Counted from the stretch's first letter, positions 33,281-47,223 are shown. The stretch: 64,000 nucleotides of DNA from an uncultured Bacteroidota bacterium (GCA_913041125.1 CAJWHM010000001.1:29698-93697), one strand, 5' to 3'. The notes: generated from the letters alone by a model not told the origin. A program made the numbers and translations.

Positions 33281-33283
33281 CTT

Positions 33284-33310
33284 AAGGGATTCTTTTGAGT
33301 CCCTTTTTTT
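33284..33310 (+). terminator. intrinsic terminator after tRNA-His
   Basis: AAGGGATTC-TTTT-GAGTCCCTT (9 bp including one G-U pair) followed by a 5-T run (33306-33310). Confidence 0.75.
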
Positions 33311-33471
33311 ATAGGGATTAACCAACTGCATTCTCCAAAAAAGCGAATACAAGTTTAAGAACGATTTACACTTAAATATACGAAATATAGACCAGTTTTG
33401 GCACGTATTTGGCACGCTAATTTAGTCGAAATTCATTCGAGACTATGTCTCTCATTGCAACTATATAGGGA

Positions 33472-33544
33472 CTCTGACGAGATTACTCCATTAAATATAT
33501 ATTGATCTACTCTATTTATGGCACTTTTAGAACTGTCATGTTGT
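33472..33544 (+). repeat. R3 element copy 1 (about 75-nt conserved intergenic element)
   Basis: CTCTGACGAGATTACTCCATTAAATATATATTGATCTACTCT... The first 42 nt differ at one position from copy 2 at 36359. Confidence 0.8.
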
Positions 33545-33548
33545 ATAA

Positions 33549-33600
33549 CAATAAATAGTATTAGTTATGGAAAAGAATTGGGACAAAATATTATTTTAGT
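33549..33600 (+). repeat. R2 element copy a
   Basis: CAATAAATAGTATTAGTTATGGAAAAGAATTGGGACAAAATATTATTTTAGT. Related copies at 37921 and 38323. Confidence 0.7.
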
Positions 33601-33603
33601 TTT

Positions 33604-33759
33604 ATGAATGATTTAAATTCTATTAAAAAATACAAATGCAATAGTTGTTCAAAAGAGATTGATTTTATTTGGGCAAGTAGTATTTATAATAACAATGAAT
33701 TTTCTAGACTTTGTACAAATTGTAGGGATGACTTGCTCAATAATTTGTATAAAAAATGA
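33604..33759 (+). CDS. small CxxC...CxxC zinc-ribbon protein (51 aa, absent from ORF track)
   Basis: Hand translation gives MNDLNSIKKYKCNSCSKEIDFIWASSIYNNNEFSRLCTNCRDDLLNNLYKK*. Stop TGA lies inside M1 motif copy a. Confidence 0.45.
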   Translation: MNDLNSIKKYKCNSCSKEIDFIWASSIYNNNEFSRLCTNCRDDLLNNLYKK

Positions 33760-33787
33760 TTGAAGTTCCTTCCTATACTTTTGTTAT
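33756..33787 (+). repeat. M1 junction motif copy a (stump)
   Basis: ATGATTGAAGTTCCTTCCTATAC... The frame closes after 16 codons. Confidence 0.7.
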
Positions 33788-33832
33788 TGATAATTTTATA
33801 AATTAGGTGATAAATAACTTAAATATAATTTT

Positions 33833-34099
33833 ATGAACTTAATGCTAACTGCAAGCTGTAATGATGCTGATGATTTTAAAATAAATGGCTATGAAAAATT
33901 TAAGCACGAGTTTGATGATTGGTGTGATTCTTCAAAATGTGTTTTTTGTAAAATTGATAATCAAAATGTTTTAGAACTATTTTTTGATGTAAATCCTCCC
34001 AAACTTCAAGAGTGGTTAGCTAAACCATCCACTCAACAAATGTTTAAAGAACATAATCTTATTCCAAAAAGATATTCTTTTGAGCCACTATCAATATAA
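33833..34099 (+). CDS. hypothetical protein
   Basis: 88 aa ORF with no recognised domain. Confidence 0.5.
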   Translation: MNLMLTASCNDADDFKINGYEKFKHEFDDWCDSSKCVFCKIDNQNVLELFFDVNPPKLQEWLAKPSTQQMFKEHNLIPKRYSFEPLSI

Positions 34100-34106
34100 A
34101 TAGCTA

Positions 34107-34271
34107 ATGCAATATTTAATCAGAAATAATTGGGGAGTTTTTTTTATTGGATTTTTCATTGCAATAGGGGATTCTCTTTTTTATTATGAATCGATTGCTT
34201 CTATTATAGGATTTTCACTAATGGTATTTTCATTTTATTTAATGAACTTAAAGTCAAAGCAAAAGAAATAA
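34107..34271 (+). CDS. small membrane protein (54 aa, absent from ORF track)
   Basis: MQYLIRNNWGVFFIGFFIAIGDSLFYYESIASIIGFSLMVFSFYLMNLKSKQKK*. Two hydrophobic helices. Stop TAA abuts the next ATG (TAAATG). Confidence 0.45.
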   Translation: MQYLIRNNWGVFFIGFFIAIGDSLFYYESIASIIGFSLMVFSFYLMNLKSKQKK

Positions 34272-34472
34272 ATGACAGAAGTTCCTTTATACCCTAATGG
34301 TTATCCATGTAAATGCTCTGGTGAGTGTAACTATTCTAAAGCTTATGAAGATGCTGGAAAACCAAAATATATAGATTTTGATAAGTTTACACGAAAAGAC
34401 TTTTCTCCAATAAGTGAAGAGGAAATTCTAATAAATAATTATCTTATAACCGAATATTGTTTAAAGAAATAA
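34272..34472 (+). CDS. small Cys-rich hypothetical protein (intact member of the M1-headed family)
   Basis: MTEVPLYPNGYPCKCSGECNYSKAY... 66 aa. The 5' end is M1 motif copy b. A frameshifted paralogue lies at 38876. Confidence 0.55.
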   Translation: MTEVPLYPNGYPCKCSGECNYSKAYEDAGKPKYIDFDKFTRKDFSPISEEEILINNYLITEYCLKK

Positions 34473-34690
34473 TGAAAAAAGAATATAAAGTTGAAGTAGT
34501 TAAAGAAGGTGCTCTAGGTACAATCTTTCTTGGATCAAGTAAAATGCCATTAAAAAAAATGGAAGAAGTAATGAATAAATACGGAGAAGATGGATGGGAT
34601 GTTGAATTTCAATTAGTTGAGAAAAGAAGACTATTATTTCTCTGGTCAAGAGAAGCTGCTATAATTACTTTTTCAAGAGAAAAGAATTAA
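34472..34690 (+). CDS. DUF4177-like small protein
   Basis: MKKEYKVEVVKEG...MNKYGEDGWDVEF...AIITFSRE resembles the DUF4177 pattern (YKVV...GWELV...ilER). TAATG overlap with the upstream ORF. The ORF track offers an alternative start at 34457. Confidence 0.55.
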   Translation: MKKEYKVEVVKEGALGTIFLGSSKMPLKKMEEVMNKYGEDGWDVEFQLVEKRRLLFLWSREAAIITFSREKN

Positions 34691-34730
34691 AACTTTATTT
34701 TTAATTTTAGGAAATTAAAACCGAATAAAG

Positions 34731-35285
34731 ATGAAAAACTTAATAATTCTATTTTTTTTGCCAGTATTAATTATTACTAGTTGTGTAAACATAGAATCTT
34801 CTAATCAATCAACTGAAAGCAAACCAATTGTAATTGGTTATGAAAGTGATAAAAACAACAAATACAAAATCGTAAATGGCGATATTAATTCAGTAGAAAT
34901 TGTTAAAGCATACTTTGATGCATACAATAAAAAAGATCTCCAAGCAGTATACAATTTGGAACACGAGGATGTTTTACTTTTTGCCCCTAATGGGATGACA
35001 ATTGAAAGTTCAAAACAACACCTAGAAGGCGGAGAAAAGTTTTTAGCAGCCAATCAATATGCAAAATGGGATATTATTTGGTCTATATCAACTCATGTAA
35101 ATTTTGAAAATAAGCCAACTGAAAATTGGGTTACATCTGGAATCCTCGTGTCTTATGGAAAAGATAAAGCATCAAAAACTTCAGTTAGTAGAGTTGTTGA
35201 TCTTATGATTAAAGACGGTAAAGTTAAAAAAGGATACATTCATCAACGTCAATTATCAGAAACTGAAAAATCTAGTAATGAATGA
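34731..35285 (+). CDS. SnoaL/NTF2-like lipoprotein
   Basis: Lipobox ITSC. VEIVKAYFDAYNKKDLQAVYNL is typical of the N-terminal helix of SnoaL-like domains. Confidence 0.6.
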   Translation: MKNLIILFFLPVLIITSCVNIESSNQSTESKPIVIGYESDKNNKYKIVNGDINSVEIVKAYFDAYNKKDLQAVYNLEHEDVLLFAPNGMTIESSKQHLEGGEKFLAANQYAKWDIIWSISTHVNFENKPTENWVTSGILVSYGKDKASKTSVSRVVDLMIKDGKVKKGYIHQRQLSETEKSSNE

Positions 35286-35312
35286 TGGATAAATTTTATT
35301 AGTATAAAAGCT

Positions 35313-36101
35313 CTATTTTTTGTCCTCATTATCAGAAATCATCAAAGGAGTTTTTCCATTTGTAATAATTATTTTTGAATTATTAGAAGCAGATAATTCT
35401 CTAAATACTTCAATTGCTTTGTTTTTTAAGACATTCTCTGTAAGACCTTCGGATATAATTATTTGTGCATCTCTTTCCCCTTTAGCACTAATAATTTTCC
35501 TTTCTGCTTCTTTTTTCTCTTGATTTAAAACAAACTCCATCCTCATTGCGTCCTGTTCTGCCTGTAATTTCCTTTCAATTGAACTGGCTAAACCGCGGGG
35601 TAGGCGAATTTGTTTCATTAAAACAGCAATCAAATCAACACCATTAGCTTGCTTTTCTAAATTAATTTTCATCTTGGACAAAATTTCACCCTCAATTTTT
35701 GATCTAACACCTGAATGCATATCTTTAGCAAAAAACTGTGCGCAAACATCAGATGCAGCTGATCTAAAGACGCTAGTAACTATTGATTCGTAATTTTTAC
35801 CTAAATTTTCCAAAACAGAAGCAACTTTATCTTCTTCAAGTCTATATAAAATTGATATTTCTGATTCTACACTTAAACCTTCTTTACTTGGAAGACTTAA
35901 TATTAGTTTAATATTCTGTGTTTGAGTTGATTCCTTTACAACTTTGCTTATTATAGGATTGTAAACCACCGATCCCTCTTTGACAACCTTGTCTGAAAAT
36001 TTACCTAACTTTTGTTTTATTCCAACTTCACCTGGTCTAATTATAGCGCAACTGACTATTAGATGAGAAATTACCAAAACAATAAAATTCTTTACCTTCA
36101 T
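35313..36101 (-). CDS. SPFH/band-7 (prohibitin-like) lipoprotein
   Basis: Lipobox VSC. GEVGIKQKLGKF..., coiled Ala/Glu-rich C-terminal part (RKLQAEQDAMRMEF...). Confidence 0.8.
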   Translation of the reverse strand: MKVKNFIVLVISHLIVSCAIIRPGEVGIKQKLGKFSDKVVKEGSVVYNPIISKVVKESTQTQNIKLILSLPSKEGLSVESEISILYRLEEDKVASVLENLGKNYESIVTSVFRSAASDVCAQFFAKDMHSGVRSKIEGEILSKMKINLEKQANGVDLIAVLMKQIRLPRGLASSIERKLQAEQDAMRMEFVLNQEKKEAERKIISAKGERDAQIIISEGLTENVLKNKAIEVFRELSASNNSKIIITNGKTPLMISDNEDKK

Positions 36102-36265
36102 ATTCGGAACTTTAATTTTTAATATAGTAATATTGAATAACTTTTATTTAATAAATTAAAATTATTCATAATTAAAATACAATCATTATAAACTTATGGA
36201 TAATTCTTATATAGACATTTGATAGAATTATATGTTCACCTTGCCTAGGATACTAAATTATTGGC

Positions 36266-36320
36266 ATATCCTTTTCTTGTAAATCAGGTATTCCTAATCC
36301 TGTTCATTAAGTTCCGTGAC
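36266..36320 (+). repeat. R4 element copy D (5' module only)
   Basis: ATATCCTTTT...AATCCTGTTCATTAAGTTCCGTGAC. The last 25 nt match R4 copy B (ATCCTCTTCATTAAGTACAGTGAC) closely. Confidence 0.6.
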
Positions 36321-36358
36321 CTTCGTGTCTTTGACACTCGGAGCTCAATAAATACTGG

Positions 36359-36433
36359 CTCTGACGAGACTACTCCATTAAATATATATTGATCTACTCT
36401 CTATTTCTGGCATCTTTGCAACTGCCATATTGT
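36359..36433 (+). repeat. R3 element copy 2
   Basis: CTCTGACGAGACTACTCCATTAAATATATATTGATCTACTCTCTATTTCTGGCATCTTTGCAACTGCCATATTGT. By eye, 8 substitutions and one 2-nt indel versus copy 1. Confidence 0.8.
36388..36418 (+). promoter_or_regulatory. candidate promoter embedded in R3 copy 2
   Basis: ATTG, 19 nt, then CATCTTTG approximates the TTTG-N19-TAnnTTTG consensus. It lies 45 nt upstream of ATG 36463. Confidence 0.3.
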
Positions 36434-36462
36434 TTTACTAATTTTAAGAAAATCCAAAACAA

Positions 36463-37149
36463 ATGAAAAGTCTTGTTGCAAAGTACTTGGTGGAATTTAT
36501 AGTCATCATAACTGGTATCTCTTTATCGTTCTATGTTGAGAATTTAAATCAGAATAATTACAAAGAAAATTTAAAGAATCAGTCATTGAAAAGAGTACTA
36601 AAAAATTTAGAGACTGATACTAGAGATTTTGAATTTAATTTAGAAGCAAATAGGAAAGCAATATATTCTTCAGACTGGATATCTGAAAGAAATAATAATT
36701 TACAATTTTATTCAAAAGATTCTGTTGGATTTCATTTAAACAGAGCAATATACTTTAATACAATTTTTGTTGATAATCAAGAGGAGTATCGTGGATTACA
36801 AAATTCAGGATTGATTGAGTTAATTGAAAATGAAAATATTGTTACCAATCTTCAACAAAAATACATAGTACACGAGTTTTTTAAAAAAATTGAAAACTCC
36901 ATAATGGATAGACGATTATATTTAGATGATTTCGCAAACAGAAATTTAAAATATAAGAGTTACAAAACAGATAATTTAGGTTTAGCTATTGACAGAATTT
37001 ATACAGGAAAACAAAATATCCCGCAGCACATAATTGAGGCTTTAAAAGACAAAAGGACATATCATAATTTTTACATAAAACGAATAAAGTCTAGATTAAA
37101 GGCAGATACTAATTTGGTAGAATTAATTAAAAATGAAATAAATGATTGA
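36463..37149 (+). CDS. hypothetical N-terminally membrane-anchored protein
   Basis: 228 aa. N-terminal helix YLVEFIVIITGISLSFYV. The layout recalls a Flavobacteriia-specific DUF family, which I cannot name with certainty. Confidence 0.6.
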   Translation: MKSLVAKYLVEFIVIITGISLSFYVENLNQNNYKENLKNQSLKRVLKNLETDTRDFEFNLEANRKAIYSSDWISERNNNLQFYSKDSVGFHLNRAIYFNTIFVDNQEEYRGLQNSGLIELIENENIVTNLQQKYIVHEFFKKIENSIMDRRLYLDDFANRNLKYKSYKTDNLGLAIDRIYTGKQNIPQHIIEALKDKRTYHNFYIKRIKSRLKADTNLVELIKNEIND

Positions 37150-37170
37150 AGTACCTCAAACTATTTTAGC
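37142..37170 (+). repeat. M1 junction motif copy c (stump)
   Basis: ATGATTGAAGTACCTCAAACTATTTTAGC. The stop of the preceding ORF (TGA 37147-37149) lies inside it. Confidence 0.6.
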
Positions 37171-37173
37171 TTT

Positions 37174-37893
37174 ATGAGTAAAAAACTTTCTGCTATTCGT
37201 GGATTAGTTTTTGCAAAACTGAATTTAAGTTATATTTTAATTGTATTTCTTTCTTGTTTAAATATTATTGGACAAGAGAAATTAAATAATAGTGGCTCAA
37301 CATCTTATCGAAAGGATCAAATTTATTTTGGAGCATCTTTTATGCTTCTTAATAGTGATCAAGAAAAATTTAAACGTCAAGGGATTTCAAAACAATTTCA
37401 ACTTGGTTTTGTAAGAGATATTCCATTAATTTCTTCTCGTAAATTAGCAATTGGTTTAGGACTGGGATATTCTTTTCAAGACTATAATTCTAATCTTGTT
37501 AGATTTAATATTAACAATGGAAATTCAATTTTTATAATAAATTATACCTTAAATCAAAAATCTAAATTATCATTTAATTTCATTGAATTCCCAATTTCTT
37601 TAAGATGGAGAAATATCTCCTTTAATAATAAATTTGAAAGAGTTTACGCAGGATTCAAATTTCAAAGGAATTTTCTTTCAAAACTGAAATATAGAAATGG
37701 TGATATAAAAAATATTTCTGATGAAGTTAATAATTGGAACAAAGAGTTATACTTAAGTTTTGGCTATAACACATGGAACGTTTATCTCTCGTATGATTTG
37801 AACCAAATTATGAAAAACTTTTATAACCAATATTCTGGTAAATCGTTTAATGTTAAATCTATAAAAATCGGACTGATTTTCTATATGCTATAA
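37174..37893 (+). CDS. outer-membrane beta-barrel (PorT/OprF-N-like) protein
   Basis: Signal sequence, alternating strands, C-terminal IKIGLIFYML. Confidence 0.6.
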   Translation: MSKKLSAIRGLVFAKLNLSYILIVFLSCLNIIGQEKLNNSGSTSYRKDQIYFGASFMLLNSDQEKFKRQGISKQFQLGFVRDIPLISSRKLAIGLGLGYSFQDYNSNLVRFNINNGNSIFIINYTLNQKSKLSFNFIEFPISLRWRNISFNNKFERVYAGFKFQRNFLSKLKYRNGDIKNISDEVNNWNKELYLSFGYNTWNVYLSYDLNQIMKNFYNQYSGKSFNVKSIKIGLIFYML

Positions 37894-37920
37894 ATGTCAT
37901 AGATTTTTTATTTTAGAAGA

Positions 37921-37972
37921 TAAAAATAGCTATAGTTATGGGAAAGAATTGGGAAGAAACATTATCTTATTC
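37921..37972 (+). repeat. R2 element copy b
   Basis: TAAAAATAGCTATAGTTATGGGAAAGAATTGGGAAGAAACATTATCTTATTC. Confidence 0.65.
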
Positions 37973-38140
37973 ATATGAAATATTTAAAATTACTTTGATT
38001 AATATCACTTGTATCTTTTGCAATATATTTTATAATAGAGTGGCTTGAAAGTGGTTTTGATTCTGTAATTTTTGCATCGTGAATTGCTATTTTGTTTTCA
38101 GGTGTTGGATTTCTTCATAAAAAATAAATTCTTTTACTAT

Positions 38141-38293
38141 ATGATTCATAAACTAAAAAATTTTGGTTTTTCAATCACATGTTTTGCAATACTATTTAAG
38201 CTAATGTCATGGCAGTACGCTGATAAACTTCTAATAGTAGGATTAAGTTCTTTAGGAATTTCTTATCTGATTAAAGTTTTTAAAAATGATTAA
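38141..38293 (+). CDS. small membrane protein
   Basis: MIHKLKNFGFSITCFAILFKLMSWQYADKLLIVGLSSLGISYLIKVFKND*. The ORF track extends to a non-ATG start at 38072, which is less likely. Confidence 0.45.
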   Translation: MIHKLKNFGFSITCFAILFKLMSWQYADKLLIVGLSSLGISYLIKVFKND

Positions 38294-38318
38294 TGTTTCT
38301 TTACACCCTAATGGTTAA
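38286..38318 (+). repeat. M1 junction motif copy d (stump)
   Basis: ATGATTAATGTTTCTTTACACCCTAATGGTTAA. It contains the stop of the preceding ORF (TAA 38291-38293), and its own frame closes after 10 codons. Confidence 0.7.
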
Positions 38319-38322
38319 ACCC

Positions 38323-38376
38323 ATAAATAGTGTTATTGGTTATGAAAAAGAATTGAGGCAAAATATTAATTTAGTT
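38323..38376 (+). repeat. R2 element copy c
   Basis: ATAAATAGTGTTATTGGTTATGAAAAAGAATTGAGGCAAAATATTAATTTAGTT. Confidence 0.65.
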
Positions 38377-38397
38377 ATTGATAAATACTATTGTAAG

Positions 38398-38568
38398 ATG
38401 GAAAAAAATAAGGTAAGTTTTGAAAAGAAAAAACTTGACAGATTAAGTTCTTTCAGATTTAAAATGAATTTTTGGCTATTAAATAAATTAGGTCTTGAGG
38501 GATTTAGGATAATACACGTAGTTGGAGGAATGCTAATTACTGTATTGGTATATGAGTTTATCCTATAA
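38398..38568 (+). CDS. small membrane protein
   Basis: MEKNKVSFEKKKLDRLSSFRFKMNFWLLNKLGLEGFRIIHVVGGMLITVLVYEFIL*. The longer ORF-track version (38293) reads through the M1 and R2 repeat remnants, so the internal ATG is preferred. Confidence 0.4.
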   Translation: MEKNKVSFEKKKLDRLSSFRFKMNFWLLNKLGLEGFRIIHVVGGMLITVLVYEFIL

Positions 38569-38597
38569 TTTAGAATATTGTTTAAAATAAAACAACA

Positions 38598-38786
38598 ATG
38601 AAAAACATTCTAATTAAATACAATAACCACTTTTCGGCTGTTATGATATTAGGAATAGGTATAGGTACTATATATCCAGATGAAACTGCAAATGATAATT
38701 ATATTTCTGCTGGGATTTATTTATTTGCTGCGTTATGCGCTTTACTGTCATTAACAGGAACTATCTTAAAATATTTTACAAAATAA
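38598..38786 (+). CDS. small membrane protein
   Basis: 62 aa, two hydrophobic helices. Confidence 0.4.
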   Translation: MKNILIKYNNHFSAVMILGIGIGTIYPDETANDNYISAGIYLFAALCALLSLTGTILKYFTK

Positions 38787-38875
38787 CTTGATTTATGAAG
38801 TTAGCATTAAACATTTTTTACATTTGTCTTGCATTTTTTCTTAGTGCTATTGCCTAATAGAGTAATTTTTACTTT

Positions 38876-39078
38876 ATGACGGAAGTTCCTTTATACCCAA
38901 ATGGTTATCCTTGTAAATGCTCTGGTAAGTGTAACTACTCTAAAGCTTATAAAGATGCAGAAAACCAAAATATATAGATTTTGATAAGTTTATAGGAAAA
39001 AGATTTTTCTCCAATAAGTGAGGAAGAAATTCTAATAAATAATTATATTAAGAGAGAGTATTGTTTAAATAAATAACA
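38876..39078 (+). pseudogene. frameshifted paralogue of the 34272..34472 Cys-rich gene
   Basis: About 200 bp colinear with 34272-34474. A 1-nt deletion (GCTGGAAAACC to GCAGAAAACC) gives a premature TAG at 38975-38977. A later +1 insertion restores the register only after that stop. Confidence 0.75.
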
Positions 39079-39507: not shown

Positions 39508-39600
39508 AACCTCCTTCTTTTTAATAATTTGGCAGTTCTAAATGTTTATAAATTAAGCAGAAATATAAAAACTTACAATTATAACTTAACAATAAACTAT

Positions 39601-39658
39601 ATCATCGAAATATCCTCCTAATTAAATTCAGGGTCTAATTTGTATATTGTTGGATATT
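39601..39658 (+). repeat. R4 element copy A
   Basis: ATCATCGAAATATCCTCCTAATTAAATTCAGGGTCTAATTTGTATATTGTTGGATATT. The ends AATATCC/GGATATT can pair. Confidence 0.7.
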
Positions 39659-39676
39659 AACCAGAATTGAATTAAA

Positions 39677-40081: not shown

Positions 40082-40134
40082 TCATTTGAATATCCTCTTC
40101 ATTAAGTACAGTGACTAATTTGTATATTAGGATA
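40081..40134 (+). repeat. R4 element copy B
   Basis: ATCATTTGAATATCCTCTTCATTAAGTACAGTGACTAATTTGTATATTAGGATA. The ends TATCCT/AGGATA can pair. It starts at the last base of the preceding stop codon. Confidence 0.7.
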
Positions 40135-40531: not shown

Positions 40532-40561
40532 ATCTCTCTCAAATATTTAAATAAAAAATTT

Positions 40562-41488: not shown

Positions 41489-41559
41489 TTATAACAACTA
41501 TTTAGGATTAATTAAGTTTAGTAAATAATTTATATTTATAATTGATTAGCCATAAACAA

Positions 41560-42159
41560 ATGTCAAGATTTTTTGTGTTGAATCTAAGCCTAATAATTAC
41601 TTGTTGTTACAGGACAGATATTGTGCAATACGGATCTGCAAACACTGACCCTGCTACATTTGCAAGTGGACAACAACTCCCAACTAAACCAAAAGACTTA
41701 ACATACTTCTGCAATCCAGCAGGTCTTGGAAGAAAAGGTTGTAAATTTTTATCTAAATATGATGGTACAATATGGGCAGATACAGAAAATTATTATAGTG
41801 ACTTTTCAGATATACAATTTTTAAACATTGCATATTTCATATCCTTCTTTGATATTAACAATGATGTTTCATATTGCAAAGGATGGAGACCAGGTGAAAA
41901 TACTTATGATGGAATAAAATGGAATATAAAAATCAAAAAAAATGAATGGGATGAGTTTTGGTTTGATTATGAATTTTATGGGACAAGTCAAGAAATTGAA
42001 TATACTATAACTTATAAATATGAAGTAATTGATGGTTTACTTCATTTTTCAAATACAGAGGGACAAGAATTTATTTTCCACCCATCTAAAAAAAATTATT
42101 CAAAAGATTTAATTGACACAGGGGAAATAATTGAACAAGAAGGTTGTATGTTTTTTTAA
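41560..42159 (+). CDS. hypothetical lipoprotein
   Basis: ATG 41560 gives MSRFFVLNLSLIITCC... The ORF track starts at TTG 41542. No domain recognised. Confidence 0.5.
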   Translation: MSRFFVLNLSLIITCCYRTDIVQYGSANTDPATFASGQQLPTKPKDLTYFCNPAGLGRKGCKFLSKYDGTIWADTENYYSDFSDIQFLNIAYFISFFDINNDVSYCKGWRPGENTYDGIKWNIKIKKNEWDEFWFDYEFYGTSQEIEYTITYKYEVIDGLLHFSNTEGQEFIFHPSKKNYSKDLIDTGEIIEQEGCMFF

Positions 42160-42178
42160 TTAGAAAAAATATATTAAC

Positions 42179-42235
42179 GGAATATCCTATTGATTCAATT
42201 AATCTTTTACTAAAATCCAGTTATGGGATAATTAA
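42179..42235 (+). repeat. R4-like element copy C, fused to an R2-like remnant
   Basis: GGAATATCCTATTGATTCAATTAATC...CCAGTTATGGGATAATTAAC. TATCC (42183) and GGATA (42226) can pair. Confidence 0.45.
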
Positions 42236-42352
42236 CATTTATTTAAGATTGTATAAAAAAGTATTGATATAAAATGTGTTAAGTAAATTCAAATTTGGAA
42301 TTTCAGTAATTTTTCAGTAATTTCAGTTCCCTTTCAAAAAAAAGATTGCAAA

Positions 42353-42496
42353 ATGAAACTATCTCATACCAGAAAATATACTTTAAAGCAAGCTTGTGGT
42401 TGCACCAACTGTGCTTGTGGATATGTTGATAGAGTTACTCTTGAAAAAGAGAAAGATAAAGGTTTTAATAGAAAGTATCCTTATTTCGCTGACTAG
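42353..42496 (+). CDS. Cys-rich small protein (47 aa, absent from ORF track)
   Basis: MKLSHTRKYTLKQACGCTNCACGYVDRVTLEKEKDKGFNRKYPYFAD*. Preceded by three helically phased TTCAGT(A/T) repeats at 42301-42328. Confidence 0.35.
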   Translation: MKLSHTRKYTLKQACGCTNCACGYVDRVTLEKEKDKGFNRKYPYFAD

Positions 42497-42571
42497 TTTA
42501 TCCCTCCCCCATATTTTTTTCTTTAGTCTTAAGTGAAACTGTAAGTTTAGCAATGCCAATATTTATTTAAT

Positions 42572-42754
42572 ATGAAAGTATTTAAAAAATTATTTTTTTA
42601 CTTCCTTCTCTTTACTGGGATTATTCTATCAACTTCACATTTAGGAGATAATTATATGGGTATAAGTGATGAAGAAGGTTATTTATTAACTGTTGGAATC
42701 TGCTGCCTCATGGCTTTCTTTTTAGAATATTTCCTTCCAAAGATTAGAAAATAA
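42572..42754 (+). CDS. small membrane protein
   Basis: 60 aa, two hydrophobic helices. Confidence 0.4.
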   Translation: MKVFKKLFFYFLLFTGIILSTSHLGDNYMGISDEEGYLLTVGICCLMAFFLEYFLPKIRK

Positions 42755-42801
42755 ATATTACGGTTTCAAGCGCACATTAAATTTTCGATATTTTTGTTTA
42801 A

Positions 42802-42996
42802 ATGAACAAATACATTTTTACTGTTTCATTACTTTGTTGGGCAAATATTGGATTATTTTATGTTTTTTATTTGTTGAAATTAGAAACTGTATTAATTGGA
42901 GTTTTTCGTGAATTAACACTAATTCCGTCTTTTTTAGGGGGTGTCCTTTTACCATTACTTTTAGTTAATAATTTTTTCAAAAAAAAAAAAAAATGA
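42802..42996 (+). CDS. small membrane protein
   Basis: 64 aa, two hydrophobic helices, poly-Lys tail. Stop TGA lies inside M1 copy f. Confidence 0.4.
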   Translation: MNKYIFTVSLLCWANIGLFYVFYLLKLETVLIGVFRELTLIPSFLGGVLLPLLLVNNFFKKKKK

Positions 42997-43025
42997 TTCA
43001 AGTTCCATTATGTTCAAATAGTTAT
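42993..43025 (+). repeat. M1 junction motif copy f (stump)
   Basis: ATGATTCAAGTTCCATTATGTTCAAATAGTTAT (MIQVPLCSNSY versus MTEVPLYPNGY). The frame closes after 28 codons. Confidence 0.65.
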
Positions 43026-43140
43026 TTTATCAGTTCTCTTTATCATTTAAATCTTTCAAACAATATAAACGTTCTATGAAAACAAAATATATTGATTTAA
43101 ATATTTTAAATTAATTTTAGACATTATTCTAATAAATAAT

Positions 43141-43239
43141 ATGGGTAATCTTTCAAAAATTCAAAAGTTATTAATTGCAGCTGGTCTCTGGATTGCAGCT
43201 GGTTTTTTTTTCTATATGTATTATATTGACAATAAATAA
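43141..43239 (+). CDS. possible 32-aa membrane peptide
   Basis: MGNLSKIQKLLIAAGLWIAAGFFFYMYYIDNK*. Single helix. Weak call. Confidence 0.25.
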   Translation: MGNLSKIQKLLIAAGLWIAAGFFFYMYYIDNK

Positions 43240-43263
43240 AGTTTGATTATCAAGTAATTTTAA

Positions 43264-43908
43264 ATGATGAAATATTTATTGGTTTTACTATTAGTATCTA
43301 ATATAACGTTCAGTCAACAAGTTGATACAAATGAAATAAGTATTGTTAAAAATATTGAGGGTTTAAATGCAAATCAAATTTTTTCAAGATTAAACCTTAT
43401 TATAGACAATGTCTTCAATTCTGCTGACGATATTATCCAATTGAATGATTCAAATTCAAATAACATTATAATCAAAGCAAACGCAGAAATTCCTGTACCA
43501 AATCAAAATAAAATAATGTATCCCAACGCAATTATTGATTATCCGGATGAAATAATGTATTCACATAGATATACCTTTAATGTATCATGTAAAGATGGTA
43601 GATATAAAATGAAAATTAATTTTAATAGAGGGGAATTTATTGGAAAAACAAATAGCAACCCTAAAAGTCCATACTTAGCTATAATGCATCCAACTTCAGG
43701 ATTTATAGCAGAACAAGTTTATTTGTGGAAAAATGAGGTTAAAACTAAAGATTGGATACTTGTTTCAAAAAAGAAAAAAAAATTATTAATCGAGGCAATA
43801 CCATCTCATATAAAAGAGTATTCTAAAAATTTAGAAACTTATGGGAAATATATATTTAATTTAATTCATGATAGTATACTGGAAAGTAAATACGAAGATA
43901 ATTGGTGA
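43264..43908 (+). CDS. hypothetical secreted protein (possibly DUF4468-like)
   Basis: Signal peptide LLVLLLVSNITFSQQ. 214 aa. Family guess from the N-terminal pattern only. Confidence 0.5.
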   Translation: MMKYLLVLLLVSNITFSQQVDTNEISIVKNIEGLNANQIFSRLNLIIDNVFNSADDIIQLNDSNSNNIIIKANAEIPVPNQNKIMYPNAIIDYPDEIMYSHRYTFNVSCKDGRYKMKINFNRGEFIGKTNSNPKSPYLAIMHPTSGFIAEQVYLWKNEVKTKDWILVSKKKKKLLIEAIPSHIKEYSKNLETYGKYIFNLIHDSILESKYEDNW

Positions 43909-44045
43909 TTATAAATAATTTTTGTGTTTTTGTGCAGCTATGATATTATCAAAAGTCAGGAATATAAATGAAATTTGGGCTAGCTATCCGAATAAAAAAA
44001 TATGGTTGGATGATTTTTTTAAAATCAGAAAGAATAATTTTTAGG

Positions 44046-44783
44046 CTACTTTCTTGAATTAATTTTTGCTAATAACCTTAATATTTCTAAATACAACCAT
44101 ATCAATGTTACTAATAGACCAAAAGCACCATACCATTCCATATACTTAGAAACCCCCTTCTCTGCTCCCTCTTCAATAAAATCAAAATCTAAGACAAGGT
44201 TTAAAGAAGCAATTATTACTACAACTACACTAAACCCAATACTTAAAGGTGAAGAATTATTTATATTCATAATACTAATCCCTGATCCAAAAAACCCCAT
44301 AATAAAATTTATAAGGTAAACTATAGCTATTCCTCCAGTTGCAGCAAATATTCCAAGTTTAAAATTTTCAGTTGGTTTAATGTAACCTGATCTATATGCA
44401 ATTAATAGAGATACTAAGATTCCTAATGTTAATAATATTGCATTTGTTACTATCCCGTTATATAAAGAATTATACATGTAAGATATTCCTCCTAACATAG
44501 CTCCTTCTAGGGATGCATAAATGGGAACCGTTATTGGAGCCCATTCTTTTTTAAATACAGTAATAATAGCGACTACAAATCCCCCTATTCCACAACCAAC
44601 TAATAAAACAGGATTAACTACATCAAAAGTAAAATATCCGGTACCTACAAGCAGCAAAAGACTTATCGCTGTTTTATTTACAGTCCCTTCTATAGTCATC
44701 TGATTATCAGATAAAATTGTATTAGAAAAAGTTTTAGAAGATAGAACTGGGTTGCCTGATCTTAAGGATAGATGTCTATTCAT
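44046..44783 (-). CDS. Bax inhibitor-1/YccA-like membrane protein
   Basis: N-terminal RSGNPVL motif followed by about 7 TM helices. 245 aa. Confidence 0.75.
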   Translation of the reverse strand: MNRHLSLRSGNPVLSSKTFSNTILSDNQMTIEGTVNKTAISLLLLVGTGYFTFDVVNPVLLVGCGIGGFVVAIITVFKKEWAPITVPIYASLEGAMLGGISYMYNSLYNGIVTNAILLTLGILVSLLIAYRSGYIKPTENFKLGIFAATGGIAIVYLINFIMGFFGSGISIMNINNSSPLSIGFSVVVVIIASLNLVLDFDFIEEGAEKGVSKYMEWYGAFGLLVTLIWLYLEILRLLAKINSRK

Positions 44784-44850
44784 ATTTATTTTTTTTCATA
44801 GATAACAAATATATGACGTAAAAAAATAAATTTAATGTCATGGCTTAAAA

Positions 44851-44899
44851 ATATCCTTTAAAATAAATAAGTTCATTAGTAACAACTAATTTATATTTA
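44851..44899 (+). repeat. R4 element copy E (with internal insertion)
   Basis: ATATCCT-ttaaaataaataag-TTCATTAGTAACAACTAATTTATATTTA is colinear with copy B except for a 14-nt insert. Confidence 0.5.
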
Positions 44900-45293
44900 A
44901 AATCAAGTTTTTTACATTAATTAACATTATGACTTAAATAAATTACAATGTTTTATCCATAATTTTTTACTATTTGATTATTAGATATAACGATTTTGTT
45001 GAATTGATTTGATATTTGTTTGTTTAGAAATTTACAAATCAAAATGGGGTATAGTCGATTGTATGATGCAGATTGATTTATGTTGAATTTTGACTTACGG
45101 TTTAATTCTATACTATATCCCGTTTTTTGTTACTAAGTTGGTTTTTTTGAATGTGGGGAATTAAGTGCTATGAGAAAGAAAATAACATCACTTATCTACA
45201 CCTTTTTCTATAAAACAATAAGTTTTGAATTTGTGAAAATATTCTTTGACCAATAATTAATCATAGTCAATAAAATATTTATATTTAAGTATT

Positions 45294-45467
45294 ATGAAAT
45301 TTTTAGAAAAGTATTACCCTATATTACTGGCTTTTTTAAGCTTCCTTTATTCCATTTTTTTATGGTTTACTGGAAATGAAATGGAAGGAATTTATGTGGG
45401 TCTATGGCCAGTAACAATTTTAGCTTTCGCTATTGCCTTGAGACAAAGAAGAAACGATAGTAAGTAA
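45294..45467 (+). CDS. small membrane protein (57 aa, absent from ORF track)
   Basis: MKFLEKYYPILLAFLSFLYSIFLWFTGNEMEGIYVGLWPVTILAFAIALRQRRNDSK*. TAATG overlap with the next sORF. Confidence 0.4.
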   Translation: MKFLEKYYPILLAFLSFLYSIFLWFTGNEMEGIYVGLWPVTILAFAIALRQRRNDSK

Positions 45468-45589
45468 TGAAAAATATCTTAATGTTTATTGTTGGATTCA
45501 TTTTTTTTGCGATCTATGTATTCTTTTATTTTAAAATTGTTTTAAGACAAAAATTTGGAAAAAAAAAGAAAGAAAGCAATAAATCTTAA
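45467..45589 (+). CDS. small membrane peptide (40 aa)
   Basis: MKNILMFIVGFIFFAIYVFFYFKIVLRQKFGKKKKESNKS*. Translationally coupled to the preceding sORF. Confidence 0.35.
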   Translation: MKNILMFIVGFIFFAIYVFFYFKIVLRQKFGKKKKESNKS

Positions 45590-45663
45590 AATTAAGACTG
45601 ATTTATTATAATTAAGACTGTTATTTATATCTTACTTTTCATTAACTATAAACTAAACATTAA

Positions 45664-46587
45664 ATGAAGAAAATTATTATACTTACGTTCCTTTTAATTC
45701 CTCTTTCATCTTTTACACAAAAAAATAATAACGGAAAAGTTTATGATAAACACCCAGCTATTGACAAGGTAAATAAATTTACCAGTGCATGGATTAGTGG
45801 TGATACTGAAACATTAAAAAGTCTCACAGGTGATAATTTTAAAATGGGTAGTTCTATGAATAACAATCCTAACTATAAGGGGGGTGATATTAATAACCTT
45901 GTTGGACAGTCACGTTGGATGAGTAATAATTTTGTAAATATATCATTAAAGGACAGAGGGCAAGCATACTCGGATGCTATTGAGTATAAAAGATCTGGAC
46001 TGTTTGTTCAAACTTTTCAAGAATTTATTGCTTGGGATAAGAACAATGGTTTTAAAATTAAAACACCTTTTAATGCAACTTTTGTATTCGATAAAAAAGG
46101 AGAAAAAATAATTCGTTTTTGGTGGTCTGACAACCAGGCAGTGTGGCAAAAATGGAACTTATCAAGACAAACTATTAAAAATGGTACAATCTATAAAGAT
46201 CATCCTTACATAGGAAAAGTCCGTCAAATTTGGTTCAATTTGGCAATGGGAAATATAGATGAAGTTTGGAAAGACTTCTCTCCGAATTCAAGAATATATG
46301 ATCTTAACTTAATAGATAAAGATTATAATAATTTAACTGATCATCAGAAATACGTAGGTGAAGTTTTTAGTAAATATGATTTAATATCAATTGATGAAGT
46401 TGGCTATCCTGACTACATTGACTACGAAGGAGACGGAGGTACTGTTTTGGCTTGGTATAATATGATTGTGAAAAATAAAAAAACAAAGAAAAATATTACA
46501 TTAAAATTTCATTCTCAACATGATTTTAATGAAGAGGGAATAATTGTTACGGAGTATTTATATTATAATGCTAATCTGCTGAAATAA
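45664..46587 (+). CDS. hypothetical secreted protein (possibly tandem NTF2/SnoaL-like domains)
   Basis: Signal peptide. Two segments begin with SnoaL-like helices (VNKFTSAWISGDTETLKSL and VRQIWFNLAMGNIDEVWKDF). Confidence 0.55.
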   Translation: MKKIIILTFLLIPLSSFTQKNNNGKVYDKHPAIDKVNKFTSAWISGDTETLKSLTGDNFKMGSSMNNNPNYKGGDINNLVGQSRWMSNNFVNISLKDRGQAYSDAIEYKRSGLFVQTFQEFIAWDKNNGFKIKTPFNATFVFDKKGEKIIRFWWSDNQAVWQKWNLSRQTIKNGTIYKDHPYIGKVRQIWFNLAMGNIDEVWKDFSPNSRIYDLNLIDKDYNNLTDHQKYVGEVFSKYDLISIDEVGYPDYIDYEGDGGTVLAWYNMIVKNKKTKKNITLKFHSQHDFNEEGIIVTEYLYYNANLLK

Positions 46588-46632
46588 TATTCTATTCCCT
46601 TATTTCGATATTATGTTTTTATTATTTAAAAA

Positions 46633-47187
46633 TTGAAAAAAATATTCTTATTTTTTTTTCATTCCCTAATTATAGCTCAACAAGCACAACACCAAGATAA
46701 TTACGGATATGATGGACCTAGAAGGTTCCAGTACCCTTCTGAAGATATAAATTCTTTATGGGAAAAAATAGGAGATGATAGATTTTATCATAATAAATTT
46801 TTACCATCTATAATTAACGGAAATAAGGTTAAAGTTAAATTTGATGCATACTCTGATTTAATGTATGTGAATTTTCGCCCAAATTGGAACGAATATATTT
46901 CACCCAGCTCAAATGATTTAATTATATTATTAGACAATAAGGAACCTTGGATTGCATTTAATCAAAAATGGTACAGACTATTATTTAGAGATGGAAATTC
47001 ATCTTATTTATACAAGCCAATTAAAGAGTTATTTCAAGAAAGAGAAGCTTCTTCCGGTTATCAAAGAAATGAGCCACCAGAATTCAAATTAGAAGAAAAA
47101 TATTTTATTTTAAAAGACGGAGAATTAAGTAAGCTTAAAAGAAAGGAGATCAAAAAGCTTGCCTTAGAAAAAATAATAAAAGGTTAA
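46633..47187 (+). CDS. hypothetical secreted protein
   Basis: TTG start, signal-like N-terminus. No domain recognised. Confidence 0.45.
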   Translation: MKKIFLFFFHSLIIAQQAQHQDNYGYDGPRRFQYPSEDINSLWEKIGDDRFYHNKFLPSIINGNKVKVKFDAYSDLMYVNFRPNWNEYISPSSNDLIILLDNKEPWIAFNQKWYRLLFRDGNSSYLYKPIKELFQEREASSGYQRNEPPEFKLEEKYFILKDGELSKLKRKEIKKLALEKIIKG

Positions 47188-47223
47188 AATATTACATAAT
47201 CAATGTAATTTATAAATGATAAA

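Follow-up and report, generated by a model that had tools for sequence, protein, structure and literature searches.

A tRNA-His island of small genes, integrase remnants and repeat-bounded cassettes in an uncultured marine Flavobacteriaceae population

Layout of the island and its strain variation

The window, a stretch of 64,000 nucleotides from an uncultured marine Flavobacteriaceae population, carries a 14-kb island of small genes between an intact tRNA-His gene and a convergent Gfo/Idh/MocA gene that forms the right border (Table 1). The tRNA-His gene, which the initial annotation had rightly taken as the upstream anchor but placed at 33206-33280, serves as the target of integration and marks the attL side. 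Some 29 small ORFs occupy the interval and, as stated earlier, only two of them are on the minus strand; the plus-strand ORFs comprise 22 of at least 50 aa and about five shorter ones. The reported couplings between neighboring genes are also present, with TAATG, TAAATG or ATGA overlaps read at 33757, 34269-34274, 37142-37149, 37174-37177, 38291-38295 and 45465-45469. Pfam records for identical genes on contig L001 list Dabb, Cupin_2, Lactamase_B, Band_7, BaxI, DUF4177, OMP_b-brl_2 and DUF4468, and the first five bear out the enzyme-like folds that had been proposed, whereas SnoaL_2 gives a weak match only (E 0.002). GC content is about 27% in the island versus about 29% in the window, and composition is not anomalous.

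At least four families of interspersed repeats had been proposed for the spacers. All are real, but they are not one kind of junction, and only the family that we call Md is a family-wide cassette junction. Ma is the first 16 nt, at the 5′ end, of a gene family encoding 66 aa (F29). Mb, which is conserved at the amino-acid level on direct reading of the sequence, is a short coding segment of a small-ORF family, and Mc, noted earlier at 33462 and 36349, is the duplicated tRNA-downstream arm of an integrated element. Reading of the spacers confirms that they contain gene stumps, and the 200-bp duplicate is found as described, with a frameshift in its second copy (34272-34483 versus 38876-39087, 83-89% identical); both prove to be pieces of the single gene family F29. 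Full-length repeat copies, and copies with at most two mismatches, occur only at 33.4-43.0 kb of the window, and outside this range the Ma (16 nt) and Mb (20 nt) motifs give just matches with three or four mismatches, and a 13-mer gives one near-match.

The picture of a tRNA-anchored, cassette-like, strain-variable island is upheld by sibling contigs, in which gene layouts differ between conserved flanks. Hypervariability had been ascribed to the island as a whole; it applies to the left 6 kb but not to the remainder, which is conserved among siblings. The strain breakpoints located by blastn (33557, 37140, 38858 and 39592) all fall on repeats, so that variable junctions and junction repeats do coincide; one of them lies at the 12-codon F29 stump and another beside the first intact Md junction. 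The arm directly downstream of the tRNA gene is kept in all sibling strains, whose common left flank stops where it ends, and it was compared with both arm copies of sibling L012. Genes for proteins of 134, 205 and 60 aa in the conserved part recur in the Md arrays of other species. The comparisons draw entirely on metagenome, MAG and SAG assemblies.

Table 1. Features of the island, in window coordinates
Feature	Position	Strand	Remarks
tRNA-His (GTG), intact	33207-33281	+	ARAGORN and Rfam
tRNA-downstream arm	33282-33557	+	terminator hairpin, tandem TTTGGCAC motif, Mc copy 1
TTTTGGCACGTATTTGGCACGC	33396-33417	+	two 8-mers one helical turn apart; single copy in window
Mc repeat	33462-33513, 36349-36400		90% identical
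Cargo of a degraded element	33558-36251		51-aa, 88-aa, 54-aa, 66-aa (F29), DUF4177, SnoaL-like lipoprotein, Band_7 (-)
Hypervariable segment	33558-39591		at least 7 gene layouts among contigs with 98-99% identical flanks
Mb repeat	33564 (33564-33583, +), 37935, 38339		encodes ..SYGKELGQNI..
Ma repeat AAATGATTGAAGTTCC	33754, 34270, 37140, 38284, 38874, 42991		
F29 stumps, further	33754-33769, 38284-38299		
88-aa gene cassette	33784-34103	+	96% identical to cassettes in SAGs AG-404-F06 and AG-920-B11 (two other species)
F29, intact 66-aa gene	34272-34472	+	MTEVPLYPNGY...
Band_7/SPFH gene	35313-36101	-	
Tyrosine-recombinase gene stump	36252-36313	-	last ~20 codons including decayed Md
Md repeat	36297, 39601-39648, 40081-40128		
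Second arm copy, truncated	36311-36451	+	includes Mc copy 2
F29 stump, 12-codon mini-ORF	37142-37177	+	overlaps 228-aa gene stop and 239-aa gene start
F29 duplicate, frameshifted	38876-39087	+	intact at same position in sibling contig L016
Older, population-conserved part	39592-47223		98-99.6% conserved among sibling contigs
Md cassette junction, intact	39597-39681	+	TAA stop, 32-nt Md, ~43-nt leader to ATG of 134-aa gene; nhmmer E 8e-18
Md cassette junction, intact	40077-40146	+	upstream of cupin gene; nhmmer E 3.7e-11
Leader-like match, weak	41509-41563		nhmmer E 0.4
Md-like, degenerate	42171-42199	+	after 205-aa gene; nhmmer E 0.85, weak
F29 third copy, heavily decayed	42991-43140	+	repeat families D3, D9, D17 and sequence reading
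BaxI gene	44046-44783	-	
Gfo/Idh/MocA gene	47224-48207	-	right border

Integrase genes and remnants of attachment sites

No recombinase or transposase was found among the window ORFs of at least 180 aa, and the earlier remark that no recombinase is in sight is correct for intact genes. It fails for remnants and for siblings, since the window has a 62-nt integrase stump, L012 carries an intact gene for a 347-aa tyrosine recombinase inside the same island (PF00589, E 8.6e-12), and sibling L013 has a broken copy there. The stump matches the 3′ end of the L012 integrase gene at 49 of 62 nt, aligns in tblastn as IPDLQEKDMPII versus IPELNEEDMPMI, and includes an Md copy that is decayed (E 0.009 with the nhmmer Md profile).

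In L012 and L013 the 3′ 60 nt of tRNA-His are repeated perfectly 6.2-6.6 kb downstream, beside the integrase gene. The complete element in these siblings runs from the full tRNA-His through arm and cargo to the integrase gene, which is on the opposite strand, and then to the arm motif and the 60-nt partial tRNA-His. The window yielded no fragment of a partial tRNA-His. Its second arm copy matches the arm that lies 3′ of the partial tRNA in L012 (121/141 nt) and the window's own first arm (93/117 nt). A deletion of about 1.3 kb took the body of the integrase gene together with the arm motif and the partial tRNA, and the second arm copy is the remnant of attR. The segment from 33558 to 36251, flanked by the attL arm on one side and the integrase stump on the other, is the cargo of this degraded element, and its F29, DUF4177 and SnoaL genes are also carried as cargo by the intact element in L012.

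In L012 and L013 the arm motif TTTTGGCACGTATTTGGCACGC directly adjoins the start codon of the integrase gene, at 66 nt from the partial tRNA, and it adjoins the start codon at about 25 other integrase loci as well; in other genomes it lies approximately 100-200 nt after tRNA-Ala, tRNA-Asn and tRNA-Met. We regard it as a candidate arm-type integrase binding site, although it may also be read as a sigma-54-like sequence. In L130, two elements are stacked in tandem at tRNA-Asn, and in the relative L109 an integrase of the same family sits directly beside Gfo/Idh/MocA.

The integrase of the siblings and the stump and second arm of the window identify the locus as a tRNA-anchored island that integrative elements have built, and islands of this kind are already known. 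Additive islands of this sort have been described in Alteromonas (PMC4119200), as have tycheposon-built islands in Prochlorococcus (bioRxiv 10.1101/2020.12.28.424599). As in those cases, the tRNA target is conserved, strains differ by the presence or absence of gene blocks, integrase elements stack in tandem and leave decayed integrases and partial tRNAs, and most of the DNA in the island has ceased to be part of an active element. Here, however, the hosts are Flavobacteriaceae, whose elements are without replication or packaging hallmark genes, and a conserved 75-bp junction, derived from the 3′ end of the integrase gene itself, divides the cargo into units of one gene each.

The Md junction and its distribution

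The junction, of about 75 bp, consists of a two-way TTAA stop, a 32-nt Md core and a promoter-like leader up to the ATG. The core is the reverse complement of the last 11 codons of the integrase, and a logo of 237 Md copies has a sharp left edge, with the ATG at +75/76. When integrases were retrieved by protein motifs, independently of Md, 48 of 77 ended in Md, and third codon positions have a pairwise identity of 0.87 over the last 11 codons versus mostly 0.40-0.60 elsewhere in the gene.

The exact Md pattern was found in 88 tiles of 8 kb from about 45 assemblies, nearly all of them marine Flavobacteriaceae; a few Md contigs of 2-8 kb are binned in other taxa. Loci are few and dispersed in each genome, with up to eight same-orientation copies per 8 kb. 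The arrays stand beside tRNA genes, on the tRNA 3′ side in 26 of 34 relations, and abut the 3′ ends of integrase genes. Beyond these ends Md reaches 1.23 copies per 10 kb, with 29/29 in the same orientation, and upstream of the integrase 0.43 per 10 kb. Apart from the integrase gene, no machinery gene recurs in the arrays.

Individual cassettes share 87-99% identity across species, next to neighbors that are non-homologous. The window's cassette at 39598-40126 has an 88% identical counterpart in a North Sea MAG, and both ends of the match lie in Md; L012 and L013 share their integrase (95% nt) yet differ in the adjoining Md-bounded cassettes. In one case, L046 and L071, cassette order is permuted. 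Linkage to the upstream cassette stops at about -4, and linkage to the downstream cassette starts at about +31. Cassettes move singly between arrays and species, with exchange points that map inside Md. No description of an Md single-gene exchange system was found in the literature searched.

Origin of the island and of cassette exchange

We consider it probable that the locus is an additive tRNA-His island formed from small elements with the 347-aa integrase, since decayed, whose cargo consists of Md-bounded single-gene cassettes. Such elements would insert into the 3′ part of a tRNA gene by means of the tyrosine recombinase, and cassettes would be inserted next to the integrase 3′ end with Md as the recombination site, an integron-like logic in which the insertion site overlaps the end of the recombinase gene. 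Further elements integrating in tandem at the tRNA would then enlarge the islands, which would afterwards lose integrases and att sites. Exchange at Md is most likely catalyzed by the elements' own integrase, although RecA-type exchange within the 32 nt of identity is almost as likely. Several observations count against this explanation. The window has just two intact Md junctions and neither an intact integrase nor a partial tRNA, and the assemblies showed no circular intermediate and no empty site. Most junctions in the window are Ma, Mb or plain intergenic, and much of the local shuffling may therefore be homologous or illegitimate recombination, as between F29 or arm copies. Moreover, many distant integrases (46-50% identity) carry Md at their own 3′ end only, with no array, and Md could thus be primarily a conserved coding end.

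It is possible, though we lean against it, that an island of the same origin exchanges its cassettes at Md by no site-specific process, with RecA-dependent recombination or gene conversion swapping, inserting and deleting them, for example after uptake of foreign DNA. The 32-nt block would be kept nearly identical by its coding role, specifying the conserved C-terminus of the integrase, and by its place next to the promoter-like leader. Consistent with this, Md shows no dyad symmetry by eye and no conserved fold by RNAalifold, and the last ~40 codons of the integrases look homogenized (third-position identity 0.72-0.87), as gene conversion predicts. The same Md also accompanies integrases that target tRNA His, Asn, Ala, Arg, Met and Val, which is awkward if their variable core-binding regions must recognize it. 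The few variable positions within Md are linked to neither flanking cassette, and fit scattered crossovers or homogenization equally well as a fixed crossover. Nevertheless, 32 nt is about the minimum for RecA-type exchange, yet exchange seems frequent and interspecies, and no crossovers are seen in the moderately conserved leader, where downstream linkage is complete from +35. Homologous exchange would also leave unexplained why an integrase 3′ end with the same sharp edges precedes every cassette, and why arrays are concentrated beyond integrase 3′ ends, where every copy has the same orientation.

Other origins fit less of the evidence. Generic REP- or MITE-like elements with no causal tie to island variability could account for Md at several loci per genome and for a 60-nt stretch with a single Md in a cupin-like pseudogene of L007 that is missing from L003 and L008. 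This is very unlikely, since in the ~50 kb of the window outside the island the Md profile finds nothing better than E = 1, and contigs of 1.1-1.4 Mb hold just three to five clustered loci that match the exact pattern, so that the genome-wide spread raised as a caveat by the initial annotation is not seen. Md also has fixed orientation, fixed spacing to ORFs and a preference for the tRNA 3′ side, and it falls on strain breakpoints and on the borders of cassettes; reading the sequences by eye revealed no terminal inverted repeats. Tandem accretion, decayed integrases, tRNA integration and partial tRNA repeats recall Prochlorococcus tycheposon islands (bioRxiv 10.1101/2020.12.28.424599), but a remnant of a phage, a PICI-like phage satellite or a tycheposon-type element is a highly improbable source. 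Capsid, terminase, primase, helicase and excisionase genes are unrecorded in the L012 element, nor do they recur in the arrays; no match to the Md pattern exists among 2.9 million IMG/VR contigs, 50,697 phage records hold no similar integrase, and the junction is absent from PLSDB plasmids.

In outline the arrays resemble those of sedentary integrons: both are unidirectional, hold small, mostly uncharacterized genes separated by a species-wide conserved repeat, have a tyrosine recombinase at one end, and contain cassettes that are individually mobile and shuffled. Sedentary chromosomal integrons, such as Vibrio superintegrons, have near-identical VCR/attC repeats. We give almost no credence to a chromosomal integron, or a CALIN (an attC cluster without an integrase) served by IntI in trans, which is contradicted on three defining features. 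The recombinase is not IntI (30 bits for TIGR02249 against a cut-off of 265, and 13.5 against 435 for PRK15417). As first noted from the sequence, the repeats are not attC-like, and RNAalifold predicts 0 pairs over 36 sequences; Md is conserved in sequence and not in structure. Arrays begin at the recombinase gene's 3′ end, overlapping its coding sequence, and not at the 5′ end. Each Md cassette also has its own conserved promoter-like leader, and the whole platform is a tRNA-integrating element. In SSV-type integrases the attachment site lies inside the integrase gene, which integration splits; there too a recombination-associated repeat overlaps recombinase coding sequence, whereas the Md overlap is confined to the last 11 codons and the tRNA att site is at the gene's other end. 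The host XerC/D act on the pdif sites of Acinetobacter plasmids, which are dyads of 28 bp (11-6-11) that alternate in orientation. The pdif/Xer modules are likewise discrete gene modules with short conserved bounding sites that are exchanged between replicons, but the copies of Md are without exception direct repeats and show no visible dyad.

The initial annotation had left a choice between a recombinase acting in trans and an undescribed mode of accretion. Because tandem integration at tRNA genes is directly seen in L012 and L130, accretion of the island needs no new mechanism; exchange at the level of Md cassettes, however, may still be one.

Strain variation and gene content of the tRNA-His island

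Sibling loci were found in public assemblies through two proteins of the window, a 308-aa metallo-beta-lactamase (MBL) protein and a 59-aa Kazal-like protein, which gave 20 loci, some in Tara Oceans and some in marine long-read metagenomes. L003-L008 and L013 come from ENA ERZ28548058-087 and L012 from ERZ25073868. The flanks of the sibling contigs are 98-99.9% identical to the window by blastn, and ORF clustering distinguishes at least seven layouts between flanks that are 98-99% identical. For example, in the window the tRNA is followed by families F50, F51, F52, F29, DUF4177, SnoaL and Band_7 and then by F49, OMP and further genes, in sibling L003 by F30, F31, OMP and others up to F1, and L005, L006, L020 and L009 each have another different layout. 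The left flank is common to all contigs up to 33557 and the right part from 39592 on, so the hypervariable part is 33558-39591; blastn homology also breaks internally at 37140 and 38858, and all four breakpoints lie on repeats (see table). The hypervariability that the initial annotation ascribed to the whole island thus holds for this segment, but 39592-47223 is stable within this population; its proposal that variable junctions fall on repeats was correct. None of the GTDB tiles is more than 97% identical to the window beyond the tRNA. After a second partial tRNA-His, L013 (1-3600) and L004 (1-6000; 725-kb contig of ERZ28548059) carry a different tRNA-downstream sequence (hereafter, arm), with TCTGCCCCT-AAA-TCTGCCCCT repeats; TonB-receptor fragments and a His_kinase/LytTR pair come next. 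The arrangement resembles an element of another type stacked at this tRNA, and the island there reaches ~27 kb.

Features of the island in the window (nucleotide positions)
Feature	Position	Strand	Remark
tRNA-His(GTG)	33207-33281	+	ARAGORN and Rfam
Tandem motif TTTGGCAC-GTA-TTTGGCAC	33396-33417		115 nt after intact tRNA-His
Mc copies	33462, 36349
Breakpoint	33557		directly after Mc, directly before Mb
Ma stumps (shorter pieces)	33754, 37140, 38284
F29, intact copy	34272
200-bp duplicate	34272-34483, 38876-39087		second copy frameshifted
Band_7 gene	35313-36101	-	one of two - strand island genes
Integrase stump	36252-36313		49/62 nt identical to integrase 3' end
Md family	36297, 39601, 40081
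Second arm copy	36311-36451		121/141 nt match to arm after partial tRNA in L012
Breakpoint	37140		Ma stump
Mini-ORF MIEVPQTILAL*	37142-37177		12 codons
Breakpoint	38858		directly before F29 duplicate
F29, frameshifted copy	38876		intact at same position in L016
Breakpoint	39592		directly before an Md
308-aa MBL-fold protein	40562-41488		matches PF23023 (Anti-Pycsar Apyc1)
205-aa lipoprotein-like gene	41542-42159
F29, decayed copy	42991
BaxI gene	44046-44783	-	one of two - strand island genes
Gfo/Idh/MocA gene	47224-48207		convergent with island; right border of ORF array

Between tRNA-His and the Gfo/Idh/MocA gene, the + strand carries 22 ORFs of 50 aa or more and some five smaller ORFs, and the - strand carries two genes, a unidirectional array of small ORFs as first described. 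Pfam matches on the identical genes of contig L001 (Dabb, Cupin_2, Lactamase_B, Band_7, BaxI, DUF4177, OMP_b-brl_2 and DUF4468) bear out the enzyme-like folds proposed earlier (Dabb, cupin, MBL, SPFH as Band_7 and BI-1 as BaxI), and the TAATG and TAAATG stop/start overlaps are present in the sequence, together with ATGA types. GC content is unremarkable, and Rfam at gathering thresholds returns tRNAs only. The interspersed repeats and the frameshifted 200-bp duplicate were also recovered by repeat search. When the window was scanned from end to end with fuzzy motifs, every full-length copy and every copy with two mismatches or fewer fell within 33.4-43.0 kb; beyond this range there are only 3- or 4-mismatch matches to 16- or 20-nt motifs and one 13-mer near-match.

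The 66-aa gene F29 begins with Ma (AAATGATTGAAGTTCC), and its neighbours on both sides differ from strain to strain, which identifies F29 as a recurrent recombination partner. Mb encodes ..SYGKELGQNI.. in all three copies and belongs to a small-ORF family. The sequence CTGACGAG within Mc was considered as a possible hammerhead core; this was dropped, as Mc is part of a duplicated tRNA-downstream arm. The 12-codon mini-ORF derives from an F29 stump and overlaps both the stop of a 228-aa gene (ATGATTGA) and the start of a 239-aa gene (ATGA), possibly forming a translational-coupling chain.

Two cargo genes deserve comment. The 308-aa protein has a signal-peptide-like hydrophobic N-terminus, so it seems more likely to be a secreted or periplasmic hydrolase than an anti-defence protein. 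The 205-aa gene is one of a family that reaches five paralogues in one 8-kb tile of other species (L036, L084, L076), at 82-93% nucleotide identity within such a tile, and sibling strains carry a 192-aa paralogue of it in place of the Dabb cassette.

A tRNA-integrating element and the remnant of its integrase

In sibling locus L012, the island contains a 347-aa ORF that matches PF00589 (E 8.6e-12), has Y330 as its catalytic Tyr and lies on the strand opposite to the cassettes; a broken copy occurs in the same island of L013. The nearest solved structures are those of generic Xer-type recombinases, XerA 4a8e (E 7e-8) and XerH. The final 26 nt of tRNA-His recur without mismatch beside the L012 integrase and once more in L013. 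Read along the sequence, L012 has the intact tRNA-His, 6.6 kb of cargo, the integrase, TTTTGGCACGTATTTGGCA at its start codon and, 66 nt past TTTTGGCACGTATTTGGCA, the 3' 60 nt of tRNA-His followed by a near-identical terminator region, which makes a direct repeat of ~110 nt. In L012, L013 and L130 the partial tRNA repeat is exact over at least 26 nt and, by reading, extends to ~60 nt plus ~50 nt of near-identical downstream sequence. By its sequence organization, L012 bears the standard footprint of integration at a tRNA 3' end. At tRNA-Asn in L130, two elements are stacked, and the older one has a truncated integrase.

The initial annotation found no recombinase in the window. This stands for recombinase and transposase genes among ORFs of at least 180 aa, but a 62-nt stump of the integrase persists there, translating as IPDLQEKDMPII against IPELNEEDMPMI in L012. 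The stump adjoins a second copy of the arm, and the window holds no other tRNA fragment. Since the stump is fused to the second arm, it follows that ~1.3 kb was deleted here, comprising the body of the integrase, the arm motif, the partial tRNA and the beginning of the second arm. The second arm also explains the Mc repeat, as the tRNA-downstream arm was duplicated by integration. Moreover, the sequence following Mc is a mosaic among strains, with the 228-aa gene after the first arm in L012 and after the second arm in the window, and the arm copies have thus served as recombination substrates as well. Of the features of a tRNA-targeting element, a recombinase at one end is intact in L012, broken in L013 and reduced to the stump in the window; the flanking repeat in the window consists of the duplicated arm without its tRNA fragment; and presence or absence between conserved flanks is observed. 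It is possible that an integrase resides elsewhere in the genome of the window organism.

The tandem TTTGGCAC motif found downstream of tRNA-His in the window occurs in relatives on the opposite strand, directly at the integrase start codon (L012, L013, L130 and ~25 other integrase loci), and also ~100-200 nt after other tRNAs. Its position both at the integrase start and after the tRNA suggests an attP whose core is flanked by the motif on either side, the arrangement expected of arm-type sites, for which TTTGGCACGTATTTGGCA would be the candidate target of the integrase N-terminal domain. The motif would fit sigma-54 -24/-12 spacing (TGGCACG-N4-TGGCA) equally well.

Locus L109 (9850-11044) carries an integrase, 70% identical, directly beside Gfo/Idh/MocA, preceded by the arm motif and only ~62 nt of the 5' part of tRNA-His. 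Retention of the 5' part indicates an att geometry or island orientation unlike that of the window lineage. Integrase homologues on contigs of 42-44 kb had raised the suspicion of a phage; the one that was checked, L109, is chromosomal, its contig ending at the island beside Gfo/Idh/MocA. In the window, no Md, arm motif or small-ORF array adjoins the tRNAs for Lys, Lys and Leu (11944-12192) or Glu (61433-61505), so in this stretch of the genome the island is specific to tRNA-His.

The Md junction and exchange of single cassettes

Cassettes are joined by Md, a 32-nt core extended by a leader to a junction of ~75 nt. Its consensus is TTAA|ATCATCGGCATATCCTCTTCATTAAGTTCAGG, then gAgTAATTTGTATATTg...TTAACyATAAATCAATTAAA-ATG, with 1.5-1.9 bits per position. 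The first 32-35 nt are the reverse complement of the last 11 codons and stop of the integrase (...PELNEEDMPMI*), and the TTAA at the left edge provides a stop codon on either strand. The upstream ORF stops at a TAA at -3 in 37 of 168 cases, the next ATG is mostly at +75/76, and the leader (TAATTTGTATATT) appears promoter-like. In many arrays a second conserved leader, AAGAAAAACACGGAGTAGAGATATT..., replaces it, as in L027, L048, L054, L062, L070 and L095. Md shares GTTCAGG(A/G)AGT (10/11) with the anticodon arm of tRNA-His, which was taken as coincidence (estimated chance 0.03-0.1), as the same Md lies beside other tRNAs.

An exact-pattern scan of one genome per GTDB species, in 8-kb tiles, located Md in 88 tiles from ~45 assemblies, nearly all of them uncultured marine Flavobacteriaceae MAGs or SAGs, the exceptions being a few 2-8-kb contigs assigned to other taxa. 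Within a genome the tiles mark a few scattered loci, such as three regions of a 1.13-Mb contig, and arrays hold up to eight copies per 8 kb in the same orientation. In all ten tiles with a full-length integrase match (49-77% identity) the integrase ends in an Md, and in 26 of 34 tRNA-Md relations (Ala, Arg, Asn, His, Met, Val, Ser) the array is on the 3' side of the tRNA. The association also holds for 80 integrase loci from JGI metagenomes chosen by protein motifs, independently of Md, where Md is the integrase end in 48 of 77. Beyond the integrase 3' ends of this set lie a further 29 Md copies, all in the same orientation; their density there is 1.23 per 10 kb, and that on the 5' side is 0.43 per 10 kb. 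Many distant integrases have only their own terminal Md and no array. Integrases that are 49% identical overall are near-identical over the last ~40 codons. At third codon positions, the pairwise identity reaches 0.87 within the last 11 codons, whereas most values for the rest of the gene are 0.40-0.60; the conserved codons at the 3' end include GAG and CCG, which are expected to be rare at 29% GC.

In all-against-all blastn, HSPs tend to terminate at Md, on the left between -5 and 0 and on the right between +25 and +35. Single Md-to-Md units are common to different species at 87-99% identity with non-homologous adjoining units, such as cassettes of L103 and L107 (99.4% over 628 nt), L089 and L103 (97.8%), L012 and L039 (93.8%) and the window (39598-40126) and L107 (88%). 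A block at 33784-34103 of the window is 96% identical to L023 and L099; it lies between two Md copies in L023 and has none in the window. Cassette order also varies, a-b in L046 being b-x-a in L071, and L012 and L013 have integrase and partial tRNA 95% identical in nucleotides next to different Md-bounded cassettes. Array cargo consists of small secreted, membrane or lipoproteins, and clustering of array genes identified the integrase as the only recurrent machinery gene.

The comparative sequences are all metagenome, MAG or SAG assemblies, and chimeras at individual loci are possible. The largest assembly k-mers named in contig titles (k119-k141) exceed the 75-nt junction, and these structures are seen in long-read contigs too.

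Relation to known systems and mechanism

An integron is defined by the tyrosine recombinase IntI with its integron-specific insertion, and its array starts at attI, beside the 5' end of the divergently transcribed intI. An attC site is an imperfect palindrome that folds as a hairpin, its structure more conserved than its sequence. Md cassettes resemble integron cassettes in being individually mobile, reorderable single genes. However, Md arrays abut and overlap the 3' end of the integrase, and the L012 integrase scores only 30.1 bits against TIGR02249 (cut-off 265) and 13.5 against PRK15417 (cut-off 435). RNAalifold predicts 0 pairs over 36 junctions, in agreement with the initial remark that they are not attC-like; an apparent hairpin from ATATCC...GGATAT pairs in a few junctions is not conserved. 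An integron or CALIN was rejected on these grounds. A dif-type site is a 28-bp 11-6-11 dyad of alternating orientation; Md copies are all direct repeats, and by eye no dyad is seen in the consensus.

Generic, genome-wide repeats of the REP type, the alternative foreseen in the initial annotation, or of the MITE type can also be set aside. The Md profile has no match better than E = 1 in the rest of the window outside the island, the exact pattern is found at few clustered loci on contigs of 1.1-1.4 Mb, and copies are associated with tRNAs and integrases. In L007 (2890-2950), 60 nt with a single Md and the stop of a cupin-like ORF are absent from the otherwise collinear L003 and L008. The difference reflects either a deletion in a decaying gene or an Md that can move alone; it was considered as a sign that Md is a MITE, but a deletion in a decaying pseudogene explains it equally well. 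Searches for the Md pattern in IMG/VR, for the junction consensus in PLSDB plasmids and for similar integrases in INPHARED phages found nothing; the elements are not evidently phage- or plasmid-borne.

Tycheposons are marked by primase/helicase or capsid/terminase genes besides an integrase. None of these hallmark Pfam families is present among the L012 element genes or the recurrent array families, as judged by recorded Pfam matches and clustering only. The tRNA-adjacent 'additive' islands of Alteromonas vary via added gene blocks (PMC4119200), and tycheposons indicate that tRNA islands can arise by tandem integration and decay of integrase elements (bioRxiv 10.1101/2020.12.28.424599). The window island is an ordinary, decayed member of this known kind. 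Literature searches gave no description of such arrays or of three of their features, namely the cargo in the form of single-gene cassettes, the junction derived from the integrase 3' end, and the exchange and permutation of cassettes between species.

How cassettes are exchanged was approached by a linkage test on 64 pairs with the same upstream and a different downstream cassette, 65 converse pairs and 22,041 unrelated pairs, integrase-type junctions being left out. The upstream cassette stays linked as far as about -4 to -1, and the downstream cassette becomes linked from about +31, fully so from +35; within Md the mismatch rate is 0.09-0.15, against 0.12-0.17 in unrelated pairs. Loss of linkage across Md places the exchange points inside it. 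The data are compatible with a fixed crossover or with scattered ones and cannot separate the two; Md polymorphisms located no fixed crossover, the variable positions being few and linked to neither side. RecA-type exchange within the 32-nt block of identity might produce such junctions, and we rate it nearly as likely as site-specific recombination. Site-specific recombination at Md, of integron-like logic and with the element's own integrase as the most plausible catalyst, is a reading that we favor tentatively, while rating it short of probable. In uncultured marine Flavobacteriaceae, the tRNA-integrating element would then be a cassette-capture platform, whose tyrosine recombinase would also recombine a 32-nt site over its own last 11 codons. 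Through this site, promoter-bearing single-gene cassettes would be inserted, excised and swapped between species, making the platform an integron analogue that lacks IntI and attC hairpins and whose 'attI' lies where the recombinase gene ends (3'). That such an undescribed platform exists, with a recombinase acting at its own 3'-end site, is a serious possibility at somewhat less than even chances.

Streamlined ocean bacteria have large flexible gene pools and few recognised vehicles that move genes. In an abundant, largely uncultured group of marine Flavobacteriaceae, we can tie a strain-variable tRNA island to a specific integrase family, and part of its cargo circulates as single-gene units with up to 99% identity between species. 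Even if the exchange is homologous, the junction is a practical marker for the limits of cassettes and islands in this group, and metagenomes can be searched for it by its simple sequence signature. Should the 32-nt junction prove to be a genuine recombination site, it would represent a second, independently evolved answer to the problem that integrons solve, the capture and reshuffling of single genes.
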